This document shows positions 1-21,573 of a stretch of 24,000 bases of DNA, piece after piece. This stretch comes from Pseudescherichia sp. (GTDB lineage: Bacteria; Pseudomonadota; Gammaproteobacteria; Enterobacterales; Enterobacteriaceae), in assembly GCF_031987975.1 (NCBI RefSeq), contig NZ_DALZYX010000001.1:602010-626009 (forward strand), written 5' to 3'. The translations under genes were made by a program, and so were the position numbers. Below the pieces are notes generated by a model, which worked only from the letters and a program-made list of their open reading frames with translations, was not told where the DNA came from and made no database searches. How positions within the stretch are numbered: the first letter of the stretch is position 1; each line of letters begins with the position of its first letter.

Positions 1-18
1 TAACGTTCCTGGCTAAGA

Positions 19-2106
19 TCAGCCCAGGATTTTTCGGACGTGAGTTTCATACAGTTTTGCTTCCTTTTGGGCGGCCGCCAGTTTCTTAATAGCGAGCGTT
101 AACGCGCTGCGATTTGCCAGAGCATCCGTTTCGCCAAACATTTGCTTCAGGTTGTATGCAATATGCTCGCGCAGCTCACCAATCCTATCCTGATAATTGC
201 CGATTACGGTTTGTTCGTTATGGAACGACAGCTCTTCCATCCCACGACGAATGTAGTAAATCTGCGCTTTATCGCTGTCACGAATCACCCCCGTGAGTTG
301 ATAGATGCCATAGGCCACGCTAGCAACCAGCGCTGCTTTACCTATAAGCGCCAGCGGAGTGAATCCCCCCTCGCTATTTGGCGTACTTTTACCGTCTACC
401 GTTCCATCTGCCGCATCAGCACCCAAAAAGGCCATCATCGCTGTTTTTATAGGGTGATATTGCTCGCTGCTGGAAAATAGCGCATCAAAAATTTGTTTAG
501 GTTGGATCTCTTCTGCCAATTGCGTTGTACAGGCTGGGTCGAACTGGATGGCCAGTTTAGTGCGAGCGCTCTCCAGCATCAGCGCAGGCATAATCTCTAG
601 CGCCGCGGTGAGATTTTTAGGTGGCGCAATCTGATGCTCTTTGCCCGGTTTTTTAAGCAGCGTGCGCACGCCCGTTATCAGCTCAGGCTCCATTGGCAAA
701 TACTGTGTTTGCTTATCCTGAACGAGGTACCCCATTCTCCCGGCTGCGGTGGTCGGCAATAGCTGCTGGTCTTCAACGATAGGCAACAGCCCCTGAGCAC
801 GCAGCGCCCGGGTATTCACAGACGTGAGTGCCTTAAAGTTGTGCTCATGGATGCTAACGTCGCTATACGATCTGTTCCAGGCATCGATGATACGTTGGCT
901 ACGTTCGTCATCCACTTCCAGACCTCTGAAAGAGAGACGGCGGGCCAAAATTTTAAGGTTATTTTGAAAGCCGACCTCTTCGCTTTTATAGCTCTCTTCA
1001 CAATACTTAAGTGCATCGGTGAAGTGCTGGCGAGTCTGCTTTTTGATCGCGGCGCGTAATTTTTGCTCATAAGCCGCGGCGGATTCGTCAAAGCTGTCGA
1101 GGATCTCATCCACTATAGACTCGCGATGCTGCTGCTTCTCCGCCAAGAGTTTCAAATTATCGATAATTTCGACGACATTTTCGTGAATAAGCTTCATGAA
1201 ATTATCCAGCGCAATCGCTTCAGATGCGGCGCTGTTGGTAAGCTTACTGGTCACAGTGGCACGCAGTGCATCCACCCAGATATCACTGTTACCAGAACCT
1301 GTCGCTACGATATCCTCTTTTTTCATCCCCGCATTGGGGAAAACACGCTCAGCGGCACTGGTTTTGAGCTGGTCGATTTCATGCTCAGTGAGCAACTCTG
1401 TCTTGCTGATGACCACTACCGGGCCGCGTTCACTGAAGTTATCTCGTAAATCTTGCAGCACGCCAGATTTGCTGTCATTTGCTAATAGCGAGGCGTCGGT
1501 CACGAATATGACGCCACGAGCGTTAACCAGTACGTGGCGCATCATATCTTGCCAGAGATAGTTTTTACTGGTCGTTAATTCATAGCCCGGCAGCAGCGCC
1601 CAGGTGATTTGTTCATCGATGAAGGAACTTTTTCTGCTGATCAGCAGCTTAGGATAGAGCAGCTTAAAGCCTGCTTTTTCATAATGACGAATGCTGTTCC
1701 AGTCGCGAAGCAGACTCTGAAGCTGCTCTCCACCTTCGCCTTTTTGCGACTCCATTTCACCTGTTTCAAGATTGAGACACTGATAGATCACCTGCGGGAA
1801 GTCGGCGGGATCGCCATCCACCTGTTCGATAAAAAGCGGCACTTGTTCGCCACGACCCGGATTGGGGTCTAACCACTCATCATCAATACCGAGAATCTCT
1901 TTCGCCAGGGTAGTTTTGCCCGCCCCCTGCATACCGGCGATGGCGTAGATGGACTCCTGCTGTAGAAGTATCGTCAACTCAACCTGACGCAAAATATCAG
2001 TGATGTAATCGATATTTTCTTTTTTTTCATTGTTTTCAACAGAGAGTGTCAACGCAGTCAGTAGCGCACCACGAAGATTATGCAAGGTGTTGATATTAAT
2101 TGACAT
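19..2106 (-). CDS. Dynamin-like (BDLP / LeoA / CrfC-type) large P-loop GTPase; accessory gene
   Basis: Long uninterrupted ORF. The track gives 19..2142 from a GTG; I prefer the ATG at 2106 (MSININ...). Motifs read from the translation lie at dynamin-like spacing. G1/P-loop is GMQGAGKTT (nt 1909-1935). The G3 position reads LLPGY (1582-1596) and is followed by the strand GVIFVTD. The G4 position reads VVVISKTE (1396-1407). About 450 aa of Glu/Lys/Gln-rich, presumably helical, sequence follows, plus one hydrophobic stretch FTPLALIGKAALVASVAYGIYQL (nt 289-366). The block LLPGYE...GVIFVTD...VVVISKTE is collinear with what I recall of E. coli CrfC (LLDTPGPNE...AVLAVLDYT...YVLVNKFD). K-12 has yecA at this position. 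Confidence 0.7.
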   Translation of the reverse strand: MSININTLHNLRGALLTALTLSVENNEKKENIDYITDILRQVELTILLQQESIYAIAGMQGAGKTTLAKEILGIDDEWLDPNPGRGEQVPLFIEQVDGDPADFPQVIYQCLNLETGEMESQKGEGGEQLQSLLRDWNSIRHYEKAGFKLLYPKLLISRKSSFIDEQITWALLPGYELTTSKNYLWQDMMRHVLVNARGVIFVTDASLLANDSKSGVLQDLRDNFSERGPVVVISKTELLTEHEIDQLKTSAAERVFPNAGMKKEDIVATGSGNSDIWVDALRATVTSKLTNSAASEAIALDNFMKLIHENVVEIIDNLKLLAEKQQHRESIVDEILDSFDESAAAYEQKLRAAIKKQTRQHFTDALKYCEESYKSEEVGFQNNLKILARRLSFRGLEVDDERSQRIIDAWNRSYSDVSIHEHNFKALTSVNTRALRAQGLLPIVEDQQLLPTTAAGRMGYLVQDKQTQYLPMEPELITGVRTLLKKPGKEHQIAPPKNLTAALEIMPALMLESARTKLAIQFDPACTTQLAEEIQPKQIFDALFSSSEQYHPIKTAMMAFLGADAADGTVDGKSTPNSEGGFTPLALIGKAALVASVAYGIYQLTGVIRDSDKAQIYYIRRGMEELSFHNEQTVIGNYQDRIGELREHIAYNLKQMFGETDALANRSALTLAIKKLAAAQKEAKLYETHVRKILG

Positions 2107-2344
2107 GAGGAGGTCTTCCCGATGGTTAGTATGCCCTATCACGACACGCTTTCATTTCGACCCTCCCTGGCATCTCGCTGGGTCATCAACCCATTGCAGT
2201 TAGCCTGCCCGACATCAGAAATTTACCTTAAGGAACAGTATGATAAGAAGAAAATCGTGATAGGTTCCGGCGCTAATAATGCCATGAAATTGATATTAAT
2301 AGGAATGTGGTATGACTATTAAAAACAGTAGGTAAATCGCAGGC

Positions 2345-2370
2345 ACAAAAAAACCACCCGGAGGTGGTTT
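2345..2370 (-). terminator. Rho-independent terminator of the glyW-cysT-leuZ tRNA operon
   Basis: On the minus strand AAACCACC-tccg-GGTGGTTT is followed by a T-run (TTTTGTG), about 40 nt after the tRNA-Leu 3' end. Confidence 0.8.
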
Positions 2371-2411
2371 GACGACACTGCTTATTGCTTTGATTATTCT
2401 TGTCTTTCCCA

Positions 2412-2498
2412 TGGTACCCGGAGCGGGACTTGAACCCGCACAGCCTTACAGCCGAGGGATTTTAAATCCCTTGTGTCTACCGATTTCACCATCCGGGC
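2412..2498 (-). tRNA. leuZ: tRNA-Leu (anticodon UAA)
   Basis: The minus strand reads GCCCGGATGGTGAAATCGGTAGACACAAGGGATTTAAAATCCCTCGGCTGTAAGGCTGTGCGGGTTCAAGTCCCGCTCCGGGTACCA. It is 87 nt with a long variable arm, anticodon loop TTTAAAA and an encoded CCA. It is near-identical to E. coli leuZ as I recall it. Confidence 0.95.
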
Positions 2499-2510
2499 TC
2501 GGGAGGAAAG

Positions 2511-2584
2511 TGGAGGCGCGTTCCGGAGTCGAACCGGACTAGACGGATTTGCAATCCGCTACATAACCGCTTTGCTAACGCGCC
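2511..2584 (-). tRNA. cysT: tRNA-Cys (anticodon GCA)
   Basis: The minus strand reads GGCGCGTTAGCAAAGCGGTTATGTAGCGGATTGCAAATCCGTCTAGTCCGGTTCGACTCCGGAACGCGCCTCCA. It is 74 nt with anticodon loop TTGCAAA. Confidence 0.95.
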
Positions 2585-2648
2585 TTAAATCTTTGTCTTT
2601 CGACCTGCACCCGCACTATGCATTGTCACAGTACCGATGCTTTAAATT

Positions 2649-2724
<76 letters not shown>

Positions 2725-2873: not shown

Positions 2874-3422
2874 TCACTGTTCCAGCAGATCGCCCCGCGC
2901 CGCGTTTAAATACTGGAACATGGACCACAGGGTCAGCACCGCAGCAACCCACAACAGGCCAATTCCCGCCCACTCTACCCAGGCGTTTGGCCGCCAAAGC
3001 ATCCATACCAGCGAAGTCATCTGCGCGGTGGTTTTCACTTTTCCAATCCATGATACCGCCACGCTGCTGCGCTTGCCCAGCTCCGCCATCCACTCACGCA
3101 GGGCGGAGATGATGATCTCACGAGCGATCATGGTGGCGGCAGGCAGCGTGACCCACCAGGTGTGGTAGTGTTCGGCCACCAGCACCATGGCGATGGCCAC
3201 CATCACCTTATCCGCCACCGGGTCGAGGAATGCCCCGAAACGGGTGCTCTGGTTCCAGCGGCGGGCCAGATAACCATCAAACCAGTCGGTTACCGCAGCA
3301 ACGAGAAAAATCAGTGCACATGCGAAAGGAGCCCAGACCACCGGCAGATAAAACGCCACCACAAAGAACGGGATCAGGATGACACGAAAAAGCGTGAGCA
3401 ACGTTGGGATATTGTATCGCAT
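2874..3422 (-). CDS. pgsA: CDP-diacylglycerol--glycerol-3-phosphate 3-phosphatidyltransferase (phosphatidylglycerophosphate synthase)
   Basis: 182 aa, [20 protein letters not shown]...[27 protein letters not shown] (CDP-alcohol phosphatidyltransferase motif). Full-length near-identity to E. coli PgsA as recalled. Conserved synteny next to glyW and uvrC. Confidence 0.96.
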
Positions 3423-3479: not shown

Positions 3480-5312
3480 TCAATGTTTCAACGAGTAGAA
3501 GATCTTTTCTGCCAGCCCCTGCGAAATACCCGGCACTTTTGCGATGTCCTCAACGCTGGCGTTGAGCAAACCCTGCAATCCACCCATGTATTTCAGCAGC
3601 ATCTGGCGGCGCTTCGGTCCGACCCCTTCAATGGTCTCCAGCGTACTGGTATTTTTGACCTTGGCGCGTTTTTTACGGTGCCCGCTAATAGCGTGATTGT
3701 GGGACTCGTCGCGAATATGCTGGATCACATGCAGCGCCGGTGAGTCCGGCGGCAGATTAAAACCCTCGCCTTCCGGTTCGAAAAACAGCGTCTCCAGCCC
3801 CGCCTTACGATCGGTGCCCTTCGCCACCCCTAGCAGCAGCGGATGGTGCTTATCCCAGGAAACATCCAGCTCGGCAAAGACCGCCTTCGCCTGACCCAAC
3901 TGCCCCTTGCCGCCGTCGATCAAGATCACGTCCGGCACCTTACTCTCTTCAATGTCTTTACCGTAGCGACGGCGAAGCACCTGATTCATCGCCGCATAGT
4001 CATCGCCTGGGGTAATACCGGTAATATTGTACCGGCGGTACTCCGCACGCAACGGCCCGTTGGCGTCAAACACTACGCAGGAGGCTACTGTCTGTTCGCC
4101 CATGGTATGGCTGATGTCAAAACACTCCATACGCCTCACCGCCGGCAGCTTCAGCAGCGTAGCCAGTGCTACCAGACGCTGGCTCACCGTTGACTGCTGG
4201 GAGAGCTTAGTGCTGAGCGCCGTCGCGGCATTGGTGCGAGCCAGCTTCAGGTAGCGCGCCCGGTCACCGCGCGGTTTGGTCTGCACGTTGACGCGGCGGC
4301 CCGCCAGCTCGGAGAGAGAATCTGCGAGCAGGGTTTTGTCGCTCAGATCGAAGTCGAGCAGGATCTCCCCTGGCAGGGTGCGCATTTGGCTGCCCTGCAG
4401 GTAGAACTGACCGACAAAGGTCTCTACCACTTCACCAAGCTCGGTACCACCGGGCACTTTCGGGAAGTAGCTGCGGCTGCCCAGCACCTTGCCCTGGCGG
4501 ATAAACAGCACGTGCACGCAGGCCATCCCGGCATCGAACGAGACGCCAATGACGTCTAAATCGTCCCCGGTGTTAGAGACAAACTGCTTCTCCGTCACGC
4601 GGCGCACGGCCTGAATCTGATCGCGAATACGCGCCGCCTCTTCAAAGTCCAGATCGCGGCTGGCCTTCTCCATCCGTTCGATCAGCAGGTTCAGGACCTG
4701 ATCGTCCTTGCCCGCCAGGAACAGGCGGACGTAGTTTACCTGCTGGGCATACTCCTCTTCGCTTACCAGCCCCTCGACGCAAGGCCCAAGGCAGCGGCCA
4801 ATCTGATATTGCAGACAGGGGCGGGAGCGGTTGCGGTAGACGCTGTTTTCACACTGGCGAATAGGGAAGATCTTCTGCAGCAGCGCCAGCGTCTCCCGTA
4901 CCGCGTAGCCGTTAGGGAACGGCCCGAAGTACTCCCCTTTCGCATGCTTAGCGCCTCGGTGCGTCGCCAGACGCGGATGGGTATCGCCGCTAAGAAAAAT
5001 GAACGGGTAAGACTTATCGTCGCGCAGCAGCACGTTGTACCGGGGCTGGTACAGCTTGATATAGTTGTGCTCAAGCAGCAGCGCTTCCGTCTCCGTATGG
5101 GTTACCGTCACGTCGATCTGCTGAATCTGGGACACCAGCGCTTCGGTTTTTCGTGAGGCAAGGTTGCTACGGAAGTAGCTGGACAGGCGCTTCTTGAGAT
5201 CTTTGGCTTTACCGACGTAGATAACAGTACCGCCGGCGTCATACATGCGGTAGACACCGGGTTTACTGGTAACCGTACTCAGAAAGGCTTTTGAATCAAA
5301 AACATCACTCAC
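3480..5312 (-). CDS. uvrC: Excinuclease ABC subunit C
   Basis: 610 aa with a GTG start overlapping the uvrY stop (GTGA). N-terminal GIY-YIG ([29 protein letters not shown]) and C-terminal (HhH)2. Near-identical to E. coli UvrC along its length. Confidence 0.97.
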
Positions 5313-5965
5313 TGACTTGTTAACGTCTCCGCATTACACAGACCATGACGAATGGCCAGGTGGGTCAGCTCTACGTCGCCGTGAATGTTCAGTTTACTGA
5401 ACATGCGATAGCGATAGCTGTTCACCGTCTTCGGGCTGAGATTCAACTGCTCGGAAATCTCATTCACCTTTTGGCCTTTGGTTATCATCAGCATAATCTG
5501 CAATTCGCGTTCAGACAAACTGGCAAAGGGAGATTCGGTTTTCTCTGGCTCAATCTGGCTGAGCGCCATCTGCTGGGCAATGTCTGAGGCAATATAACGC
5601 TGGCCGGCATAAACGGCGCGAATAGCGTTTACCATCTCTTTCGGGGCGGCCCCCTTGCTGAGATAGCCTGAGGCACCTGCCTGCATCACTTTGGCAGGCA
5701 GCGGATTTTCAGTGTGGACGGTCAGCATAATCACTCTGGTATCAGCCATGGATCGCGCAATTTTACGCGTTGCCTCCAGGCCACCAATACCGGGCATGTT
5801 CATATCCATCAGCACCACATCCACAGGATGGGCGCGGCACCATTTTACGGCATCTTCGCCGCAACAGACCTCGCCGGAAACTTTTATGCCTTTAATATCT
5901 TCCAGAATGCGTCGTATCCCTGCGCGCACCAGCTCGTGGTCATCAACAAGAAGAACGTTGATCAA
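5309..5965 (-). CDS. uvrY: Response regulator UvrY (BarA/UvrY two-component system, LuxR/FixJ family)
   Basis: 218 aa, [29 protein letters not shown]... Receiver domain plus C-terminal LuxR-type HTH ([43 protein letters not shown]). Operon arrangement with uvrC as in E. coli. Confidence 0.96.
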
Positions 5966-8411: not shown

Positions 8412-9076
8412 TTCGGATCGCGCTCCTGACGGTTAAGCTGATTTTCAAAATAGTTCTGCAACGCGGAGAGTACCGTGGCCATCACCCAGTAGATCAGGGA
8501 GGCGGCGAGGTACATGGTAAAGACCTCCAGCGTCCGGGAGGTGATCAGCTGCGCCTGGCGGAACAGCTCTGGCACCTGAATGGTCGCTGCCAGCGAGGTA
8601 TCTTTTACCAGGCTAATGAAGCTGTTGCTCAGCGGCGGCAACGCCACCCTCGCCGCCTGGGGCAGAATGGCGCGGCGCAGGGTTTGCCACGGCGTCATGC
8701 CGATACTGGCCGCGGCCTCCCACTGACCTTTATCAATTGAGGAGATAGCAGCCCGCAGCGTTTCCGAGGTGTAGGCTGCGGTATTAAGCGACAGGCCGAT
8801 CATCGCCGCCGGAATCGGATCCAGCTCGATACCAAACTGCGGCAGACCGTAGTAGATCATAAACAGCTGCGCGATCAGCGGCGTACCGCGAAATATGGAG
8901 ATATAGAAGCGTGCCAGCCAGCGTACCGGCGCGATGGCCGACATCCGCATCAGCGCCAGCACAAAGCCGAGCAGCAGGCCAAAGAACATCCCGCCGATAC
9001 TGAGCTGTAACGTAAATACCGCACCCCGCAGCAGGTACGGCAAAGACTCTATCACCAGTTGTATACTCTCTTGCAT
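8408..9076 (-). CDS. tcyL: Cystine ABC transporter permease
   Basis: 222 aa polar-amino-acid ABC permease with multiple hydrophobic segments (EAA-loop region ...AAASIGMTPWQTLRRAILPQA). Matches E. coli YecS/TcyL in sequence and position. Confidence 0.94.
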   Translation of the reverse strand: MQESIQLVIESLPYLLRGAVFTLQLSIGGMFFGLLLGFVLALMRMSAIAPVRWLARFYISIFRGTPLIAQLFMIYYGLPQFGIELDPIPAAMIGLSLNTAAYTSETLRAAISSIDKGQWEAAASIGMTPWQTLRRAILPQAARVALPPLSNSFISLVKDTSLAATIQVPELFRQAQLITSRTLEVFTMYLAASLIYWVMATVLSALQNYFENQLNRQERDPK

Positions 9077-9097
9077 TATGGTTTTTCTGCCTGATGG

Positions 9098-10084
9098 TTA
9101 AACGTGAGGATGATAGGCAAAGAGCGCAGGCGCGCCGCCGGTATGGATAAACAGGATCGGCCCATGATCTTTGAAACGGTTCTGGCTGATACCATCGATC
9201 AGCCCGGCCATGGCCTTACCGGTATAGACCGGATCCAGCAGAATACCTTCGAGGCGGGCCAGCAGCTTGATGGCCTCCATCCCCTCCTCGTTTGGCGTAC
9301 CGTAGCCGGGAGCGAAGTAGTCATCCCAGAGAGTAATGTCAGCCCTCGCCTCCACGTCCAGCTCACGTGCCACCGCCTGCTGAAGCGTGACCACTTTCGG
9401 TTTCTGCTCGTCACGTTTGCGTGAGACGGTAACGCCAATTAGCTCCGCCTCCGGCATCAGCTGCTCAAGGCCTACCGCCAGCCCGGCATGGGTTCCAGCG
9501 CTGCCAGAGGCCACCACGATCGACGATAGCTCTACCGCCCCTTCACACTGCTGGGCGATCTCCAGCGCACTCTCGACGTAGCCCAGCGCCCCCAGCGCGT
9601 TGGAGCCACCGACCGGAATAACGTAGGGACGAAAACCCTGGGCTTCGATCCGCGTCGCCAGCTCACTCAACTGCGCAACCGGATCGGTCAGAGCGTCGCA
9701 CATCTCAATTTGGGCATTGAAGAGATCCAGCAGCAGCCGGTTGCCGTTAGTAAGATAGTTCTCTGCCCGCGTGGCAATAGGATTCTCCAGCAGCGCCACG
9801 CAGTGCAGGCCGAGCTTTGCCGCCACGGCGGCGGTCTGGCGCACATGGTTTGACTGAATCGCCCCGGCGGTGATCAGCGTGTCGGCCCCCTCCCGCAGCG
9901 CATCGGCGGCGAGAAATTCCAGCTTGCGCAGCTTGTTACCCCCCAGCGCCATCGGCGTCACGTCGTCACGTTTGATGTAGATTTCACGTCCCAGATAGTC
10001 AGAAAAGCGCGGCAAATACTCCAGCGGCGTGGGCGCGCCAATAAATTCGAGGCGCGGAAAGCGGGTCAGGTTTTGCAAAGACAT
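9098..10084 (-). CDS. dcyD: D-cysteine desulfhydrase (PLP-dependent, ACC-deaminase fold)
   Basis: 328 aa from [41 protein letters not shown]... (PLP lysine in [10 protein letters not shown]). The 6-codon upstream extension in the track (to 10102) is not supported by alignment to E. coli DcyD. Confidence 0.94.
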
Positions 10085-13894: not shown

Positions 13895-15307
13895 ATGGCA
13901 ACAGTAAGTTCGCTCGGCGCGGGCACCAGCATGAGTTCATCGCTGAGTACGTTATATGATGGGCTGGAGTCTTCAGAACAGACCCGGTTAACGCCTATTA
14001 CACAGCAGCAATCGTCATATAAAGCCAAACTTACCGCCTGGGGCGTGGTGCAGACATCGTTGACCAAGCTGCAGACAGCAGCGGACGCGTTAAAAGATAC
14101 CTCAGCCATCGCTTCGGCCAAGGTCTCCAGCACCAATACCGCGTTCAGCGCGACGCTGGCCAACAGCGCTACGGCGGGAACCTACTCCGTAGAGGTCACC
14201 CAGCTAGCCACCTCGCAGTCGCTGCTCAGCCCGAAAGCAAGCAGTAAAGATACCGACCTCGGCGACAGCAGCCTCAGCTCGCGAACAATCACTATCACCC
14301 AGCCAGGCCAGGACGATCCGCTGACGGTAACGCTGGCCAGCGATAAAACCAGCCTTGCGGACGTTCGCGATGCGATCAACGCCAAACAGGGCAGCGTCAC
14401 CGCCAGCATCATTAAAGCAGATGATGACAGCTACTACCTGGCGCTAACCTCACGTGACAGCGGCACGGCCAACGCAATGACCATCAGCACTGACGACAGC
14501 AAGCTGGCGAAGTACATCAGCTATGACGCGACTGACAGTTCGAAGAGCACGATGACCCAGCAGGTGGCGGCGAAGGATGCTATTGTTGACATTAATGGCA
14601 TCACCATCACCCGCAGCAGCAACACCATTACCGATGCGCCAGAGGGCGTGACCCTGTCGCTGACCAAAACCAACGTCGGCAGTCCGGAGACGCTGTCGGT
14701 AGTAAAAGATAATGCCCCAATGACGGCGGCGATTCAGGCCTACGTTGATGCCTATAACTCGCTGCAGACCACCATCAGCAACCAGACCAAATATACGTCA
14801 GTAGACCAAGGCAGCGACAGTCAGAGCACCTCAAACGGGGATCTGCTCGGCGACGGCACCCTGCGTAATATCCAGACGCGCCTGCGCTCTCTGCTCTCCA
14901 CTACTCAGGGAAGTGGAGCTATCTCTACCCTGTCGCAGATGGGCATTACCCAGGATCTCAGCGGCAAGCTAACCGTGGACAGCACTAAGCTGAACAAAGC
15001 GCTGAACGAATCTCCGACCGACGTGCTGACCTTTCTCTCCGGCGACGGTAAAACCACCGGTTTTGCCACCCAGGCTAGCAGCCAGCTAGAGGATATTCTG
15101 GGCACCGACGGCACGCTGAAAAGCGCCACGGACGGGATAAATAAAACCCTGAAGCGGCTTTCAGATAAGTACGACCAGGTAAACGATCAGATTACCGCGA
15201 CGATGGCACGTTACAAGGCGCAGTTTACTAGCCTGAGCACGCTGATGTCGTCCCTGGACTCCACGGCCAGCTACCTGACCCAGCAGTTCAATGCCATAAA
15301 CAGCTAA
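13895..15307 (+). CDS. fliD: Flagellar filament cap protein FliD
   Basis: 470 aa from MATVSSLGAGTSMSS... with SD GAGGGA at 13882-13887. The C terminus ...RYKAQFTSLSTLMSSLDSTASYLTQQF is collinear with E. coli FliD. The track ORF start (13718) runs through the promoter region and is rejected. Confidence 0.95.
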   Translation: MATVSSLGAGTSMSSSLSTLYDGLESSEQTRLTPITQQQSSYKAKLTAWGVVQTSLTKLQTAADALKDTSAIASAKVSSTNTAFSATLANSATAGTYSVEVTQLATSQSLLSPKASSKDTDLGDSSLSSRTITITQPGQDDPLTVTLASDKTSLADVRDAINAKQGSVTASIIKADDDSYYLALTSRDSGTANAMTISTDDSKLAKYISYDATDSSKSTMTQQVAAKDAIVDINGITITRSSNTITDAPEGVTLSLTKTNVGSPETLSVVKDNAPMTAAIQAYVDAYNSLQTTISNQTKYTSVDQGSDSQSTSNGDLLGDGTLRNIQTRLRSLLSTTQGSGAISTLSQMGITQDLSGKLTVDSTKLNKALNESPTDVLTFLSGDGKTTGFATQASSQLEDILGTDGTLKSATDGINKTLKRLSDKYDQVNDQITATMARYKAQFTSLSTLMSSLDSTASYLTQQFNAINS

Positions 15308-19798: not shown

Positions 19799-19807
19799 AT
19801 GGCTGGA

Positions 19808-20266
19808 TTACTGCGGAATACGCAGCACCTGGCCCGGATAGATTTTTTCCGGGCTTTTCAGCATCGGTTTATTCGCTTCAAAGATCTTATTGTACTGGTT
19901 AGCGTCGCCGTATACCTGTTTGGAGATGGCGCTCAGCGTGTCACCGGATTTCACGGTGTAGAACTGGCTCTCTTTTGCAGTGGTATCTGCGGCAGGCGCG
20001 GCCTTAACGTTGTCGGCTACGCTGGCGATACCGGAGATGTTACCTACCGCAACCAGAATCTTCTCTTTAGCTTCCTGGCTCAGGCCTTCACCGGTTACAG
20101 TGGCCTGACCGTCAGCAACCTGCACGTTAACCTTATCCGCGTCCGGGATACCCGTTTTACTCAGATGCTCCTGCACCTTTTTCGCCTGATCTTCCTTATC
20201 ATCATGCCCGGAAACGGCATCCCACAGCTTTTCACCTGCTTCTTTTACAAAATTGAAAAGACCCAT
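19808..20266 (-). CDS. kbp: BON + LysM domain protein, Kbp/YgaU-like (potassium-binding protein family)
   Basis: 152 aa, [20 protein letters not shown]...[39 protein letters not shown] (BON) ...[49 protein letters not shown] (LysM). Closely parallels E. coli YgaU/Kbp as recalled, but the locus differs from K-12, so it may be a paralogue. Confidence 0.8.
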
Positions 20267-20445
20267 TTTCAGCTCCTTACCGTTAAGTTAAGACTCTGAA
20301 AGTGTAGCAGAGACCAGCGGAAGCGGCTGACGTAAGCATAATTTAAGGAAGTTCTGACTATAGCGGCCTGGTCATGAAAAAGCAGCGCAAAACCTTGCAT
20401 CTAAATCACCTAAAAATTTTAGGGCCTTATTCTCTTTTATCGTAT

Positions 20446-21573
20446 TTATTTATTTTGCGTAGTCAGTACAAATTTCATTTTGACTTTGTCCCAGCCAGAC
20501 CTGATGGCTCGGTTGGCTGGCATCTCAATGAACTTGAATGAAAGAACAGAAACAACGATGGCCACTGCCAGGCTGGAGGCCGTATATATCAGTATGGAGG
20601 TAACGCTGCCCTTGTCAGGCTGCATGATTTCTATCATTTTTGACACAATCATCCAGTGGAACATATAAAAAGAAAATGACGCCTCGCCAAGCAGGATCAA
20701 ATATTTGTTTGCAAGGATGCGAGAAATGATGCCGCCATTAAAGGCGAATGCAATAACGATGGATGCCATGCAAGGAATGAACAGAACGTCATAGGCATAA
20801 TTTGTGTTCGATAGGTGATTTGACGAAACGTAAACTGTTAGCGCCAAAAAGAGCAGCGACCCCACTTCCATTGTACTGCATACGCTCGCTTTTAGCGTGA
20901 CTGGCTTAGCAAGGAATGCTCTGCATATGATGATACCCAGGATGAAATCGGTAATTCTGAACAGCGGATTTATATAATATAGCCAGTGCAGAGAAATATT
21001 TGCCGGAGGGTTATTAAGAAAATAGATATTAACCGCTTGTACGGCAACAAATATCGCTGTCAGGTATCTTGTTTTGCATTTAACAAGCAGACAAAAGCAA
21101 AGGTAGAAGAACATTTCGCATGAAATGCTCCATGATACTGGATTAAATGAAAAATAATAAGCTGAATCTGGAATAAATGATTGCAGTAATAGCACGTTGT
21201 ATGCCAACGCCTCTTTATTAGTCGCATCAAAATTCTGGATATAACCAAATAAATAAAGCACACAAATCAAAGAGACGACATGCACCGGGAATAGCCGCGC
21301 CAGCCTGTAAACTATAAAATCTTTGTTGCTAAACCGCCCTTCTGCCAGATGCTTACTAAAGCTGTAATTAATGATGAACCCTGAAAGTATATAGAAGAAG
21401 GTTACACCTATATAACCCTTTGAAAAATATCTCGATATTTCGTTCAACTGCGGAATTGAAGATAATGAGTAAATTCCTAAATGGCTCATAAAAACGCCAA
21501 GCGCTGCAAACATCCTTAACGATGTAAGGCTATGAATAATATTGCTATTTTTTGACATACTTCTGCCATTCAT
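20446..21573 (-). CDS. Acyltransferase-3 (AT3/PF01757-like) integral membrane O-acyltransferase, stand-alone (no SGNH domain)
   Basis: 375 aa (an alternative start at 21558 gives MSKNSN...). Hydrophobic segments run throughout. The N-terminal R-X10-H signature is LR(20)MFAALGVFMSH(31), and an RxxR motif (YRLARLFP) follows; both are as described for the AT3 domains of OafA/Oac-type carbohydrate O-acetyltransferases (from memory). Composition is strongly AT-rich. Confidence 0.8.
   Translation of the reverse strand: MNGRSMSKNSNIIHSLTSLRMFAALGVFMSHLGIYSLSSIPQLNEISRYFSKGYIGVTFFYILSGFIINYSFSKHLAEGRFSNKDFIVYRLARLFPVHVVSLICVLYLFGYIQNFDATNKEALAYNVLLLQSFIPDSAYYFSFNPVSWSISCEMFFYLCFCLLVKCKTRYLTAIFVAVQAVNIYFLNNPPANISLHWLYYINPLFRITDFILGIIICRAFLAKPVTLKASVCSTMEVGSLLFLALTVYVSSNHLSNTNYAYDVLFIPCMASIVIAFAFNGGIISRILANKYLILLGEASFSFYMFHWMIVSKMIEIMQPDKGSVTSILIYTASSLAVAIVVSVLSFKFIEMPANRAIRSGWDKVKMKFVLTTQNK

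Follow-up and report, generated by a model that had tools for sequence, protein, structure and literature searches.

The closest described counterparts of the locus reported here are paired bacterial dynamin-like systems, of which Eleos and DynA are known to act in phage defence. Eleos is a two-gene dynamin operon in which both P-loops are needed for defence (bioRxiv 10.1101/2022.05.11.491447), and a co-localisation of 60% with known defence systems has been reported for it. In the related Leo operon of enterotoxigenic Escherichia coli (ETEC), the G domain is split, and its N-terminal half, with the P-loop and switch 1, is LeoC, the product of the first gene (PMC4159319). For DynA, two reports describe action at the membrane against phage (PMC8844932, PMC12998192), and a passage quoted in PMC4159319 describes two dynamin-like units acting together, only one of which binds the membrane. 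Here we analysed a 24,000-nucleotide stretch of a Pseudescherichia sp. genome (GCF_031987975.1, contig NZ_DALZYX010000001.1, positions 602,010–626,009; hereafter the window), focusing on the gene at its left edge, termed A, which encodes a dynamin-like protein and lies next to the tRNA gene leuZ, and on the two genes that follow it, termed B and C.

Positions 1–2339 of the window, read on the reverse strand, cover the initial 2.3 kb of a horizontally acquired operon, A-B-C, which measures 4.9 kb and is bounded by the terminator of the leuZ 3' trailer on one side and by yecA on the other. The complete B and C genes were taken from a 962-kb metagenome contig (L001) encoding an identical A protein, on which A, B and C overlap, look co-transcribed and are followed by yecA, tyrP, ftnA and yecR. 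Gene B encodes 628 residues (L001 12057–13943; WP_312227128.1, annotated as 'hypothetical protein') and starts at window position 50, overlapping the end of A by 32 nucleotides (nt). A first-pass annotation, made from the letters of the window, had anticipated a dynamin-like partner left of position 1 within a multi-gene module; the partner and the module were both found, the module comprising three genes and not only the expected pair. Gene C (L001 13936–14553) overlaps B by 8–26 nt and encodes 205–211 residues forming a coiled coil followed by a strongly hydrophobic 20-residue C-terminal tail. Neither a family match (Pfam, NCBIfam) nor a P-loop was found in C, which is predicted to be a cytoplasmic coiled coil with a C-terminal inner-membrane anchor. 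We think it probable, albeit with only modest confidence, that A-B-C is an accessory anti-phage system acting at the cell membrane, analogous to Eleos and DynA.

Like Eleos (LeoA and LeoBC, Millman et al. 2022; ETEC LeoABC, Michie et al. 2014), A-B-C is an operon in which two genes for dynamin-like GTPases stand side by side, and in some of its contexts it occurs in defence islands; it shares with the ETEC form a third small gene with a C-terminal membrane anchor. The structural model of B matches the LeoA crystal structure 4aur with an E-value of 2e-6, and the LeoA hidden Markov model (HMM) gives weak matches in 12 of 27 B-family members, the best B-family scores against the LeoA and LeoBC models being E 8e-7 and 2.4e-7. 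The two systems differ in that A is matched by neither the LeoA nor the LeoBC HMM (PADLOC-DB v2), B scores 26.3 bits against LeoBC over positions 47–118 of 601 (72 positions) and 13.9 bits against LeoA, and A carries LLPGYE in place of DxxG; moreover, LeoC is the P-loop half encoded by the first gene, whereas C is a variable coiled coil without a P-loop encoded by the last. In its proposed working A-B-C is most like Eleos/LeoABC, yet it falls outside Eleos by HMM matching and by the nature of its third gene. The first-pass annotation had left undecided whether A falls within the described Eleos families or represents an undescribed clade. Since the LeoA and LeoBC models miss A and match B at only 26 bits over 72 of 601 positions, the evidence favours the latter, with A-B-C as an undescribed and unannotated variant of the paired bacterial dynamin-like systems; literature searches turned up no description of this three-gene family.

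The likeness to LeoABC also raises the role first proposed for that operon, in which the cassette would be a vesiculation or secretion factor promoting the release of outer-membrane vesicles. Both systems combine a paired dynamin with a small membrane-anchored protein, and deletion of leoA or leoB halves the vesicle-associated cargo (PMC4159319). However, no signal peptide is detectable in the N-terminal sequences of A, B and C, the tail-anchored C has a cytoplasmic body, a virulence-island context is absent, and the Leo operon has since been reassigned to defence (bioRxiv 10.1101/2022.05.11.491447), so that we consider vesiculation highly improbable for A-B-C and prefer defence at the membrane.

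Structurally, A is closest to BDLP1 of Nostoc punctiforme (2j68/2j69; E 3.5e-10), and both A and B strongly match DLP1/DLP2 of Campylobacter jejuni (5owv/5oxf), encoded by tandem genes as are A and B. Their domains are arranged as in A, from the G domain through neck and trunk to a hydrophobic tip, and the paddle of BDLP, at residues ~572–606, falls almost exactly where A has its hydrophobic stretch. They differ by an identity of only 10–15%, without a sequence-level match even when family profiles were compared with the Protein Data Bank (PDB), as well as by the extra tail-anchored coiled-coil gene, the asymmetric pair and the one degenerate switch II of A-B-C. The nearest three-gene analogue is IniBAC, which likewise combines two dynamin-like proteins (IniA, IniC) with one non-GTPase accessory (IniB), IniA being the top structural match of B. 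Gene order differs between the two, IniB is a Gly/Ala-rich protein and not a tail-anchored coiled coil, and the chromosomal iniBAC operon is conserved and induced by stress, A-B-C being patchy and mobile. The single membrane-binding unit of Bacillus subtilis DynA is paralleled by the paddle-like tip present in A and lacking in B; DynA is, however, one fused polypeptide encoded by a Bacillus core gene and lacks a third component, and the analysis detected no relationship to it at the sequence level.

Dynamin fold and motifs of A and B

The open reading frame (ORF) of A, described earlier as having 695–707 codons, extends over window positions 19–2142 on the reverse strand, yielding 707 residues from a GTG or 695 residues from the ATG at 2106. 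The ATG is used by the gene calls of public assemblies and agrees with the homologues, which comprise 694–696 residues, and an exact look-up returned the 695-residue form and no record of the 707-residue GTG form. The exact A protein is called in two public contigs and corresponds to WP_312227129.1, a 'hypothetical protein' of Pseudescherichia sp.

Sequence profiles give weak matches for both proteins. Against Pfam Dynamin_N (PF00350; gathering score 27 bits), A scores 15.2 bits (E 0.023, profile positions 2–167 of 168) and B 21.2 bits (E 3e-4). Among the 31 families matched by 62 A-family members at E ≤ 0.01, Dynamin_N is outside the 25 most frequent ones, and according to precomputed tables PF00350 is carried by more distant B homologues. 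Neither PADLOC-DB v2 nor NCBIfam yielded a match to A, nothing useful was obtained from NCBIfam for A, B or C, and searches of A and B against PDB sequences, with single sequences as well as family profiles, returned only P-loop or coiled-coil noise.

The predicted structures settle what these profiles leave weak, and identify A and B as dynamin-like at the level of the models. The AlphaFold model of A (mean predicted local distance difference test, pLDDT, 77; predicted template modelling score 0.76) was compared with the PDB using Foldseek, resulting in a top 50 consisting entirely of dynamin-superfamily structures, headed by 2j69 and including IniA, OPA1, Campylobacter DLP1/2, Drp1, dynamin, MxB and Fzo1/Mfn1; among the viral models of BFVD it matched only giant-virus dynamins. 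For B, the model was built from a protein 92% identical to the B of the window genome (P0095; pLDDT 83). Its top 37 PDB matches were all of the dynamin superfamily, with IniA 6j72 as the best (E 2.5e-9), followed among others by BDLP, Cj-DLP, SynDLP, the mitofusins and LeoA. For A, a Foldseek comparison with Nostoc BDLP, LeoA and DynA had been proposed by the first-pass annotation, whose dynamin reading is upheld by the fold. A and B are distant paralogues. BLASTP aligned no more than their P-loops, and it took profile–profile comparison with hhalign to relate the two along the G domain (probability 89%, E 2e-6).

An alternative in which A is a generic P-loop ATPase or kinase, and not dynamin-like, would draw on AAA_22 as the best Pfam score of A (25 bits), on ABC_tran matches in 27 of 62 A-family members, on the 'sugar kinase' names found in RefSeq and on the missing G3 Asp. 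Yet the AAA_22 and ABC matches are confined to ~30 residues around the P-loop and stay below the cut-offs, the full-length model of A finds nothing but dynamin-superfamily structures in either of two libraries, the weak Dynamin_N alignment spans the profile, and A aligns to the dynamin-like B. We find this alternative barely credible and continue with A as a dynamin-fold protein.

The sequence motifs refine this assignment. GMQGAGKTT, LLPGY and SKTE had been read by the first-pass annotation as dynamin G1, G3 and G4 motifs, and their presence and dynamin-like spacing stand (113 residues from G1 to G3, 63 from G3 to G4); as they are conserved among 62 homologues, they are not due to chance. LLPGY is, however, not a canonical G3, because the Asp of DxxG has given way to an invariant Leu. 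This Leu is found in 62 of 62 aligned A homologues, together with an invariant Glu two residues past the Gly, and the invariant positions of A comprise G58, G61, A62, G63, K64 and L171–E176, with E237 conserved in at least 90%. Across 230 A-family sequences, a recognisable P-loop was present in 193, dominantly of the form GxQGAGKTT, and LLPGYE in 158, with close variants in about 20 more; an Asp at the first position of the matched LLPGYE-type motifs was not observed in any of these sequences. The family G4 varies between SKTE, SRSE, TKTE and TRTE (S/T-K/R-x-E), and a GRGE..P element is located at the expected switch I position. B, on the other hand, retains DxxG as an invariant DLPG, onto which hhalign places the LLPG of A, and shows the P-loop GPAQAGKT with invariant G53, G58, K59 and T60, the switch-I T92 and D167-L168-P169-G170. 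A thus combines a dynamin fold and a conserved P-loop with a rebuilt switch II, whereas B is canonical. The xxxGxE of A and its upstream Arg might, speculatively, be compared with the switch II/switch I salt bridge of kinesin and myosin.

The hydrophobic stretch that had been noted near the C-terminus of A was recovered at residues ~583–605. Its hydropathy is moderate (Kyte–Doolittle 19-residue mean 1.51), and it is rich in Ala, Gly and Val within a conserved span of ~580–635. In the model it is part of a low-confidence loop between trunk helices (residues 564–610, pLDDT <50). In eight of nine homologues a hydrophobic segment at residues ~562–638 was the best or exceeded the threshold, the exception being Proteus. 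No hydrophobic membrane element was detected in a hydropathy scan of B, which is predicted to be soluble.

Searching 1.84 billion representative proteins by profile retrieved 592 A clusters at E ≤ 1e-3, 396 of them at E ≤ 1e-30; among the clusters listed nearly all are full length (~700 residues). The A family forms a group of its own, separate from the mainstream dynamins. RefSeq or UniRef records give several homologues the name 'sugar kinase' and one that of 'tektin family protein' (P0003, P0073, H21, H22, H24, H29); nothing was found in support of these names, which appear to be propagated mis-annotations.

Insertion next to leuZ and distribution of A-B-C

The annotation of E. coli K-12 shows nothing but the 67-nt small RNA (sRNA) 3'ETS-leuZ between leuZ and yecA, in line with the gene order given in the first-pass annotation. 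A three-way alignment of the Pseudescherichia junction with K-12 and a sister strain shows near-identity up to TTTTTTTGTGCCTG and divergence from both immediately thereafter. Breakpoints determined by blastn on contig L007 are at 9083/9084 (window 2340/2339) and 14001/14002, delimiting an insert of 4,918 bp. Its G+C content is 48.8% (49.5% for gene A) versus 54.5% and 56.1% in the flanks, corroborating the lower value suggested earlier, with a moderate difference.

Among contigs with identical PgsA proteins, A-B-C alone occupies the junction in L007 and in L009, which equals the window; in L006 it is accompanied by a hexapeptide transferase and a MaoC dehydratase (13936–15113), and in L008 the cassette is absent and an unrelated ORF of 149 residues is found instead (9072–9689). 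The lineage-specific insertion at a tRNA junction postulated from the window is hence real. Because the cassette is absent from L008, the breakpoints are exact and different fillers occupy the same site, we conclude that it was acquired horizontally, as further indicated by the different chromosomal sites in different genera, the plasmid copies and the lower G+C content. The site just past the leuZ 3' trailer represents a cargo-swapping hotspot in Pseudescherichia, the leuZ–yecA junction having at least three fillers, and the cassette is accessory cargo at this tRNA-adjacent hotspot. Direct repeats, an integrase or an att-like sequence were not seen at the edges of the insert, for which reason an integrated mobile element was rejected in favour of cargo exchange at a hotspot.

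Some further features of the junction were noted. The 149-residue ORF of L008 has a signal-peptide-like N-terminus and a G+C content of 42%, and in E. coli ECCHD184 the same junction holds a hypothetical gene and a site-specific integrase (L025 2731–4751). Five metagenome contigs (L010–L014) end a few hundred bases past pgsA, as expected if strains differ there. The 67-nt leuZ trailer is near-identical to E. coli 3'ETS-leuZ, including the terminator, and the variable region starts at its last T-run; no Rfam model reported this trailer.

A search of 5,426 complete E. coli genomes did not turn up the cassette. Outside the window, look-ups of exact proteins identified the gene order A-B-C at 11 further loci, giving 12 distinct contexts at identities down to 25%. 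Triads are present in Enterobacter and Citrobacter (A 84% identical), Pectobacterium, Kosakonia, Proteus, Psychrobacter and Pseudoalteromonas, with further ones in a Rhodocyclaceae metagenome-assembled genome and one additional genome, and plasmid triads in Klebsiella pneumoniae, Pseudomonas luteola and Gluconobacter, the last being degraded and located beside IS5. Leaving this degraded copy out of the motif scan, all 11 scanned loci combine an A with LLPGYE, a B with GxxQVGKT and DLPG, and a C with a C-terminal transmembrane segment. Sizes range over 694–755 residues for A, 625–668 for B and 155–332 for C.

Among the close enterobacterial copies, C evolves fastest of the three proteins, with identities of 84% for A, 78% for B and 70% for C. 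Its N-terminal motif LLDQLVQDLF and its C-terminal anchor are kept across the family despite the range in size, and an internal duplication of a coiled-coil segment of ~37 residues (QNVTL.SLTEQ...) underlies length differences (L005 11945–12673 and L016 13909–14646 compared with L001 13936–14553). Weak PADLOC matches of C homologues to the ZorA tail, JetC and Csn2 were dismissed as reflecting coiled-coil composition and not homology.

The neighbourhood of the cassette varies. In Enterobacter and Citrobacter it is immediately preceded by a HsdMSR-YgjP-(GmrSD or PDDEXK_4)-Mrr-like-HNH island; in Pseudoalteromonas a type I Zorya system is located upstream together with an AAA_15 pair, and a patatin–dynamin pair downstream. 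These are clear defence islands, whereas in Psychrobacter integrase-like, HicB and WYL genes nearby are suggestive. Insertion sequence (IS) elements, a group II intron, and FokI-like, PD-(D/E)XK or RecB-like nuclease genes are found at other loci, and the P. luteola plasmid copy is situated near traG and mobI.

These locations bear on the question whether the cassette serves mobile elements themselves, for example in competition between plasmids or islands, in entry exclusion or by remodelling membranes during conjugation, with the chromosomal copies as remnants. Consistent with such a role, distant copies reside on large conjugative plasmids or megaplasmids of Klebsiella, Enterobacter, P. luteola and Gluconobacter, that of P. 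luteola near the traG and mobI genes mentioned above, and some chromosomal copies lie beside IS elements, a group II intron or an integrase-like gene. The window copy, however, has neither mobility genes nor repeats at its edges and many chromosomal copies stand alone, while a plasmid or island location does not discriminate because defence systems are commonly carried there too. We regard a service to mobile elements as rather improbable and retain anti-phage defence as the preferred role.

Several observations concern individual neighbourhoods. The Mrr_cat/NA-iREase1 and HNH_2 genes stand directly upstream in both Enterobacter and Citrobacter (L005 5727–7834; L017 7745–9834), the remainder of the island differing between the two (GmrSD versus a 163-residue gene and PDDEXK_4); these two genes, which are absent from the window copy, might travel with the cassette in this lineage. 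In Pseudoalteromonas, a patatin–Dynamin_N fusion of 1,221 residues, followed by another Dynamin_N protein, is encoded 2.5 kb downstream (L023 17343–22211). PADLOC reports for this pair a phospholipase-effector match (3.5e-6) and weak LeoA/LeoBC matches (7e-4), and it may constitute another unrecognised dynamin-based system in the island of Zorya. In Pectobacterium wasabiae, a giant gene exceeding 2,500 codons, whose product has a sacsin-like (SACS) domain, follows ~600 bp downstream in the same orientation (L016 15240–22088). A lone 'phage' match in tblastn turned out to be a 6.6-kb unannotated faecal contig with 24% identity and was not taken as evidence of phage carriage.

Candidate role at the membrane

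By analogy with LeoA/LeoBC, Cj-DLP1/2 and DynA, we infer a pairing of A with B, an action at the membrane and a role in defence. In such a system the overlapping reading frames would lead to co-expression of A, B and C, and A and B would pair through their G domains like other tandem bacterial dynamins, B serving as the conventional hydrolysing head and A as an asymmetric, regulatory or slow one. The paddle of A and the anchor of C could place the complex on the cytoplasmic membrane, where a nucleotide-driven conformational change may remodel, tether or reseal the membrane at phage-perturbed sites, with the outcome that productive infection or lysis would be limited.

A number of observations weigh against this interpretation. 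On the side of the fold, the Dynamin_N scores of both A and B of the window's cassette lie below the gathering score, and global TM-scores to solved dynamins are low (0.2–0.3; 0.4–0.5 to G-domain constructs). Low global values are expected, since multi-domain proteins adopt different hinge states, and the fold call is based on the Foldseek E-values and probabilities together with the TM-scores to the G-domain constructs. The first-pass annotation had held that the lack of a significant dynamin or GTPase profile match would speak against a dynamin; such matches are indeed below threshold, but are overridden by the dynamin fold retrieved with Foldseek. On the side of catalysis, G4 is non-canonical in both proteins (SKTE in A, T233-R-A-Y-S237-D in B), and because the Walker-B/G3 Asp is missing, GTP hydrolysis by A may, judging from its sequence, be absent altogether. 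On the side of genomic context, the HMMs of known defence systems in PADLOC call no A-B-C module, and unmistakable defence neighbours occur in only three of the 12 contexts, with none in Kosakonia, Proteus, Pectobacterium or the window copy; mobile-element or nuclease genes are found in four to five more and neither kind in four, the sample being small.

The contexts devoid of defence genes would also fit a general membrane-stress or repair module resembling mycobacterial IniBAC or housekeeping DynA, which would stabilise the inner membrane or reseal it once antibiotics, detergents or other envelope damage have harmed it, with no particular tie to phage. IniA 6j72 as the best structural match of B and the established composition of IniBAC, likewise two dynamin-like proteins with an accessory, point in the same direction, as does the reported response of DynA to pore-forming antibiotics besides phage (PMC12998192). 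The patchy and strain-variable occurrence at differing loci and on plasmids, however, agrees better with an accessory, conflict-type gene than with envelope housekeeping, and A-B-C adjoins restriction–modification, Zorya, HicB and WYL genes, which renders a repair module unlikely compared with the proposed anti-phage system.

More tentatively, and as a view we hold to be possible but not probable, A-B-C could represent an undescribed three-component dynamin immune system distinct from Eleos, in which a canonical B is combined with an A whose LLPGYE and GRGE switch-I-like element perhaps work as an Arg–Glu gate in the manner of kinesin and myosin, and in which the fast-evolving, tail-anchored C acts as a membrane-proximal sensor or ruler licensing the pair at sites of phage attack. 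Compared with Eleos and DynA, A-B-C offers a naturally asymmetric pair with a dedicated membrane anchor, and its presence in genetically tractable Enterobacterales means that the hydrolysing head, the recruitment and the membrane effect could become directly testable. It also points to an annotation gap, as ~590 A clusters are labelled 'hypothetical' or 'sugar kinase' and are missed by Pfam, NCBIfam and PADLOC.

Feature coordinates and further observations

The features delineated in the left part of the window are compiled in the table. UvrC, PgsA, YecA, A and B correspond to RefSeq proteins of Pseudescherichia sp. in an exact-match look-up. The three tRNA genes are situated upstream of A in the same orientation.

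Table. Features of the A-B-C locus and its upstream flank in window coordinates; residue numbers refer to the A protein.
Feature	Position	Strand	Basis or remark
Gene B, first 16 codons (MKLTSEKSWADLSQER...)	1–50	-	ATG in another frame; rest beyond window edge
Gene A, 695-residue dynamin-like protein	19–2106	-	ORF call; ATG start
Domain layout of gene A: G domain, helical neck/trunk, paddle-like hydrophobic tip			AlphaFold model
Paddle-like hydrophobic segment, residues ~583–605 (TPLALIGKAALVASVAYGIYQL)	292–360	-	hydropathy scan
G4-like SKTE, residues 234–237	1396–1407	-	read from sequence
Degenerate switch II/G3 LLPGYE, residues 171–176	1579–1596	-	read from sequence
P-loop (G1) GMQGAGKTT, residues 58–66	1909–1935	-	read from sequence
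Leader, non-coding, 5' end of cassette	2107–2339	-	AT-rich; blastn breakpoint
leuZ 3' trailer and terminator, homologue of E. coli 3'ETS-leuZ sRNA	2346–2411	-	conserved edge of variable site
glyW-cysT-leuZ tRNA cluster	2412–2724	-	ARAGORN and Rfam
tRNA-Leu(UAA)	2412–2498	-	
tRNA-Cys(GCA)	2511–2584	-	
tRNA-Gly(GCC)	2649–2724	-	
pgsA	2874–3422	-	
uvrC	3480–5312	-	
uvrY	5309–5965	-	

The stem of the leuZ terminator was mapped to window positions 2351–2370 from a terminator-like hairpin at L001 9737–9756. From there to the start of A the distance is ~200 nt for the GTG or ~240 nt for the ATG, the former in agreement with the earlier estimate of about 200 nt in the same orientation. The last ~60 nt of the leader are conserved among the enterobacterial copies of the cassette, an upstream alignment of five loci revealing the block AAA(C/T)G(A/G)AAGC(G/A)TGT...ATG. 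A sigma-70 consensus scan of the leader found sites no commoner than in shuffled sequence, and promoter and terminator consensus scans in general performed no better than shuffled sequence, the leuZ terminator excepted. An ORF of 66 residues antisense to the leader (window 2122–2322, forward strand) has been annotated as a gene in four public contigs and has no family match; it is probably a gene-calling artefact.

Farther along the window, a patch of low G+C content (37–46%) was noted between yedE and fliE (19799–21573). It contains a membrane acyltransferase of 375 residues (Acyl_transf_3; 20446–21573, reverse strand) and an ORF of 166 residues without a family (19799–20299), and looks like a second horizontally acquired insert in a flagellar-region neighbourhood that is otherwise conserved.

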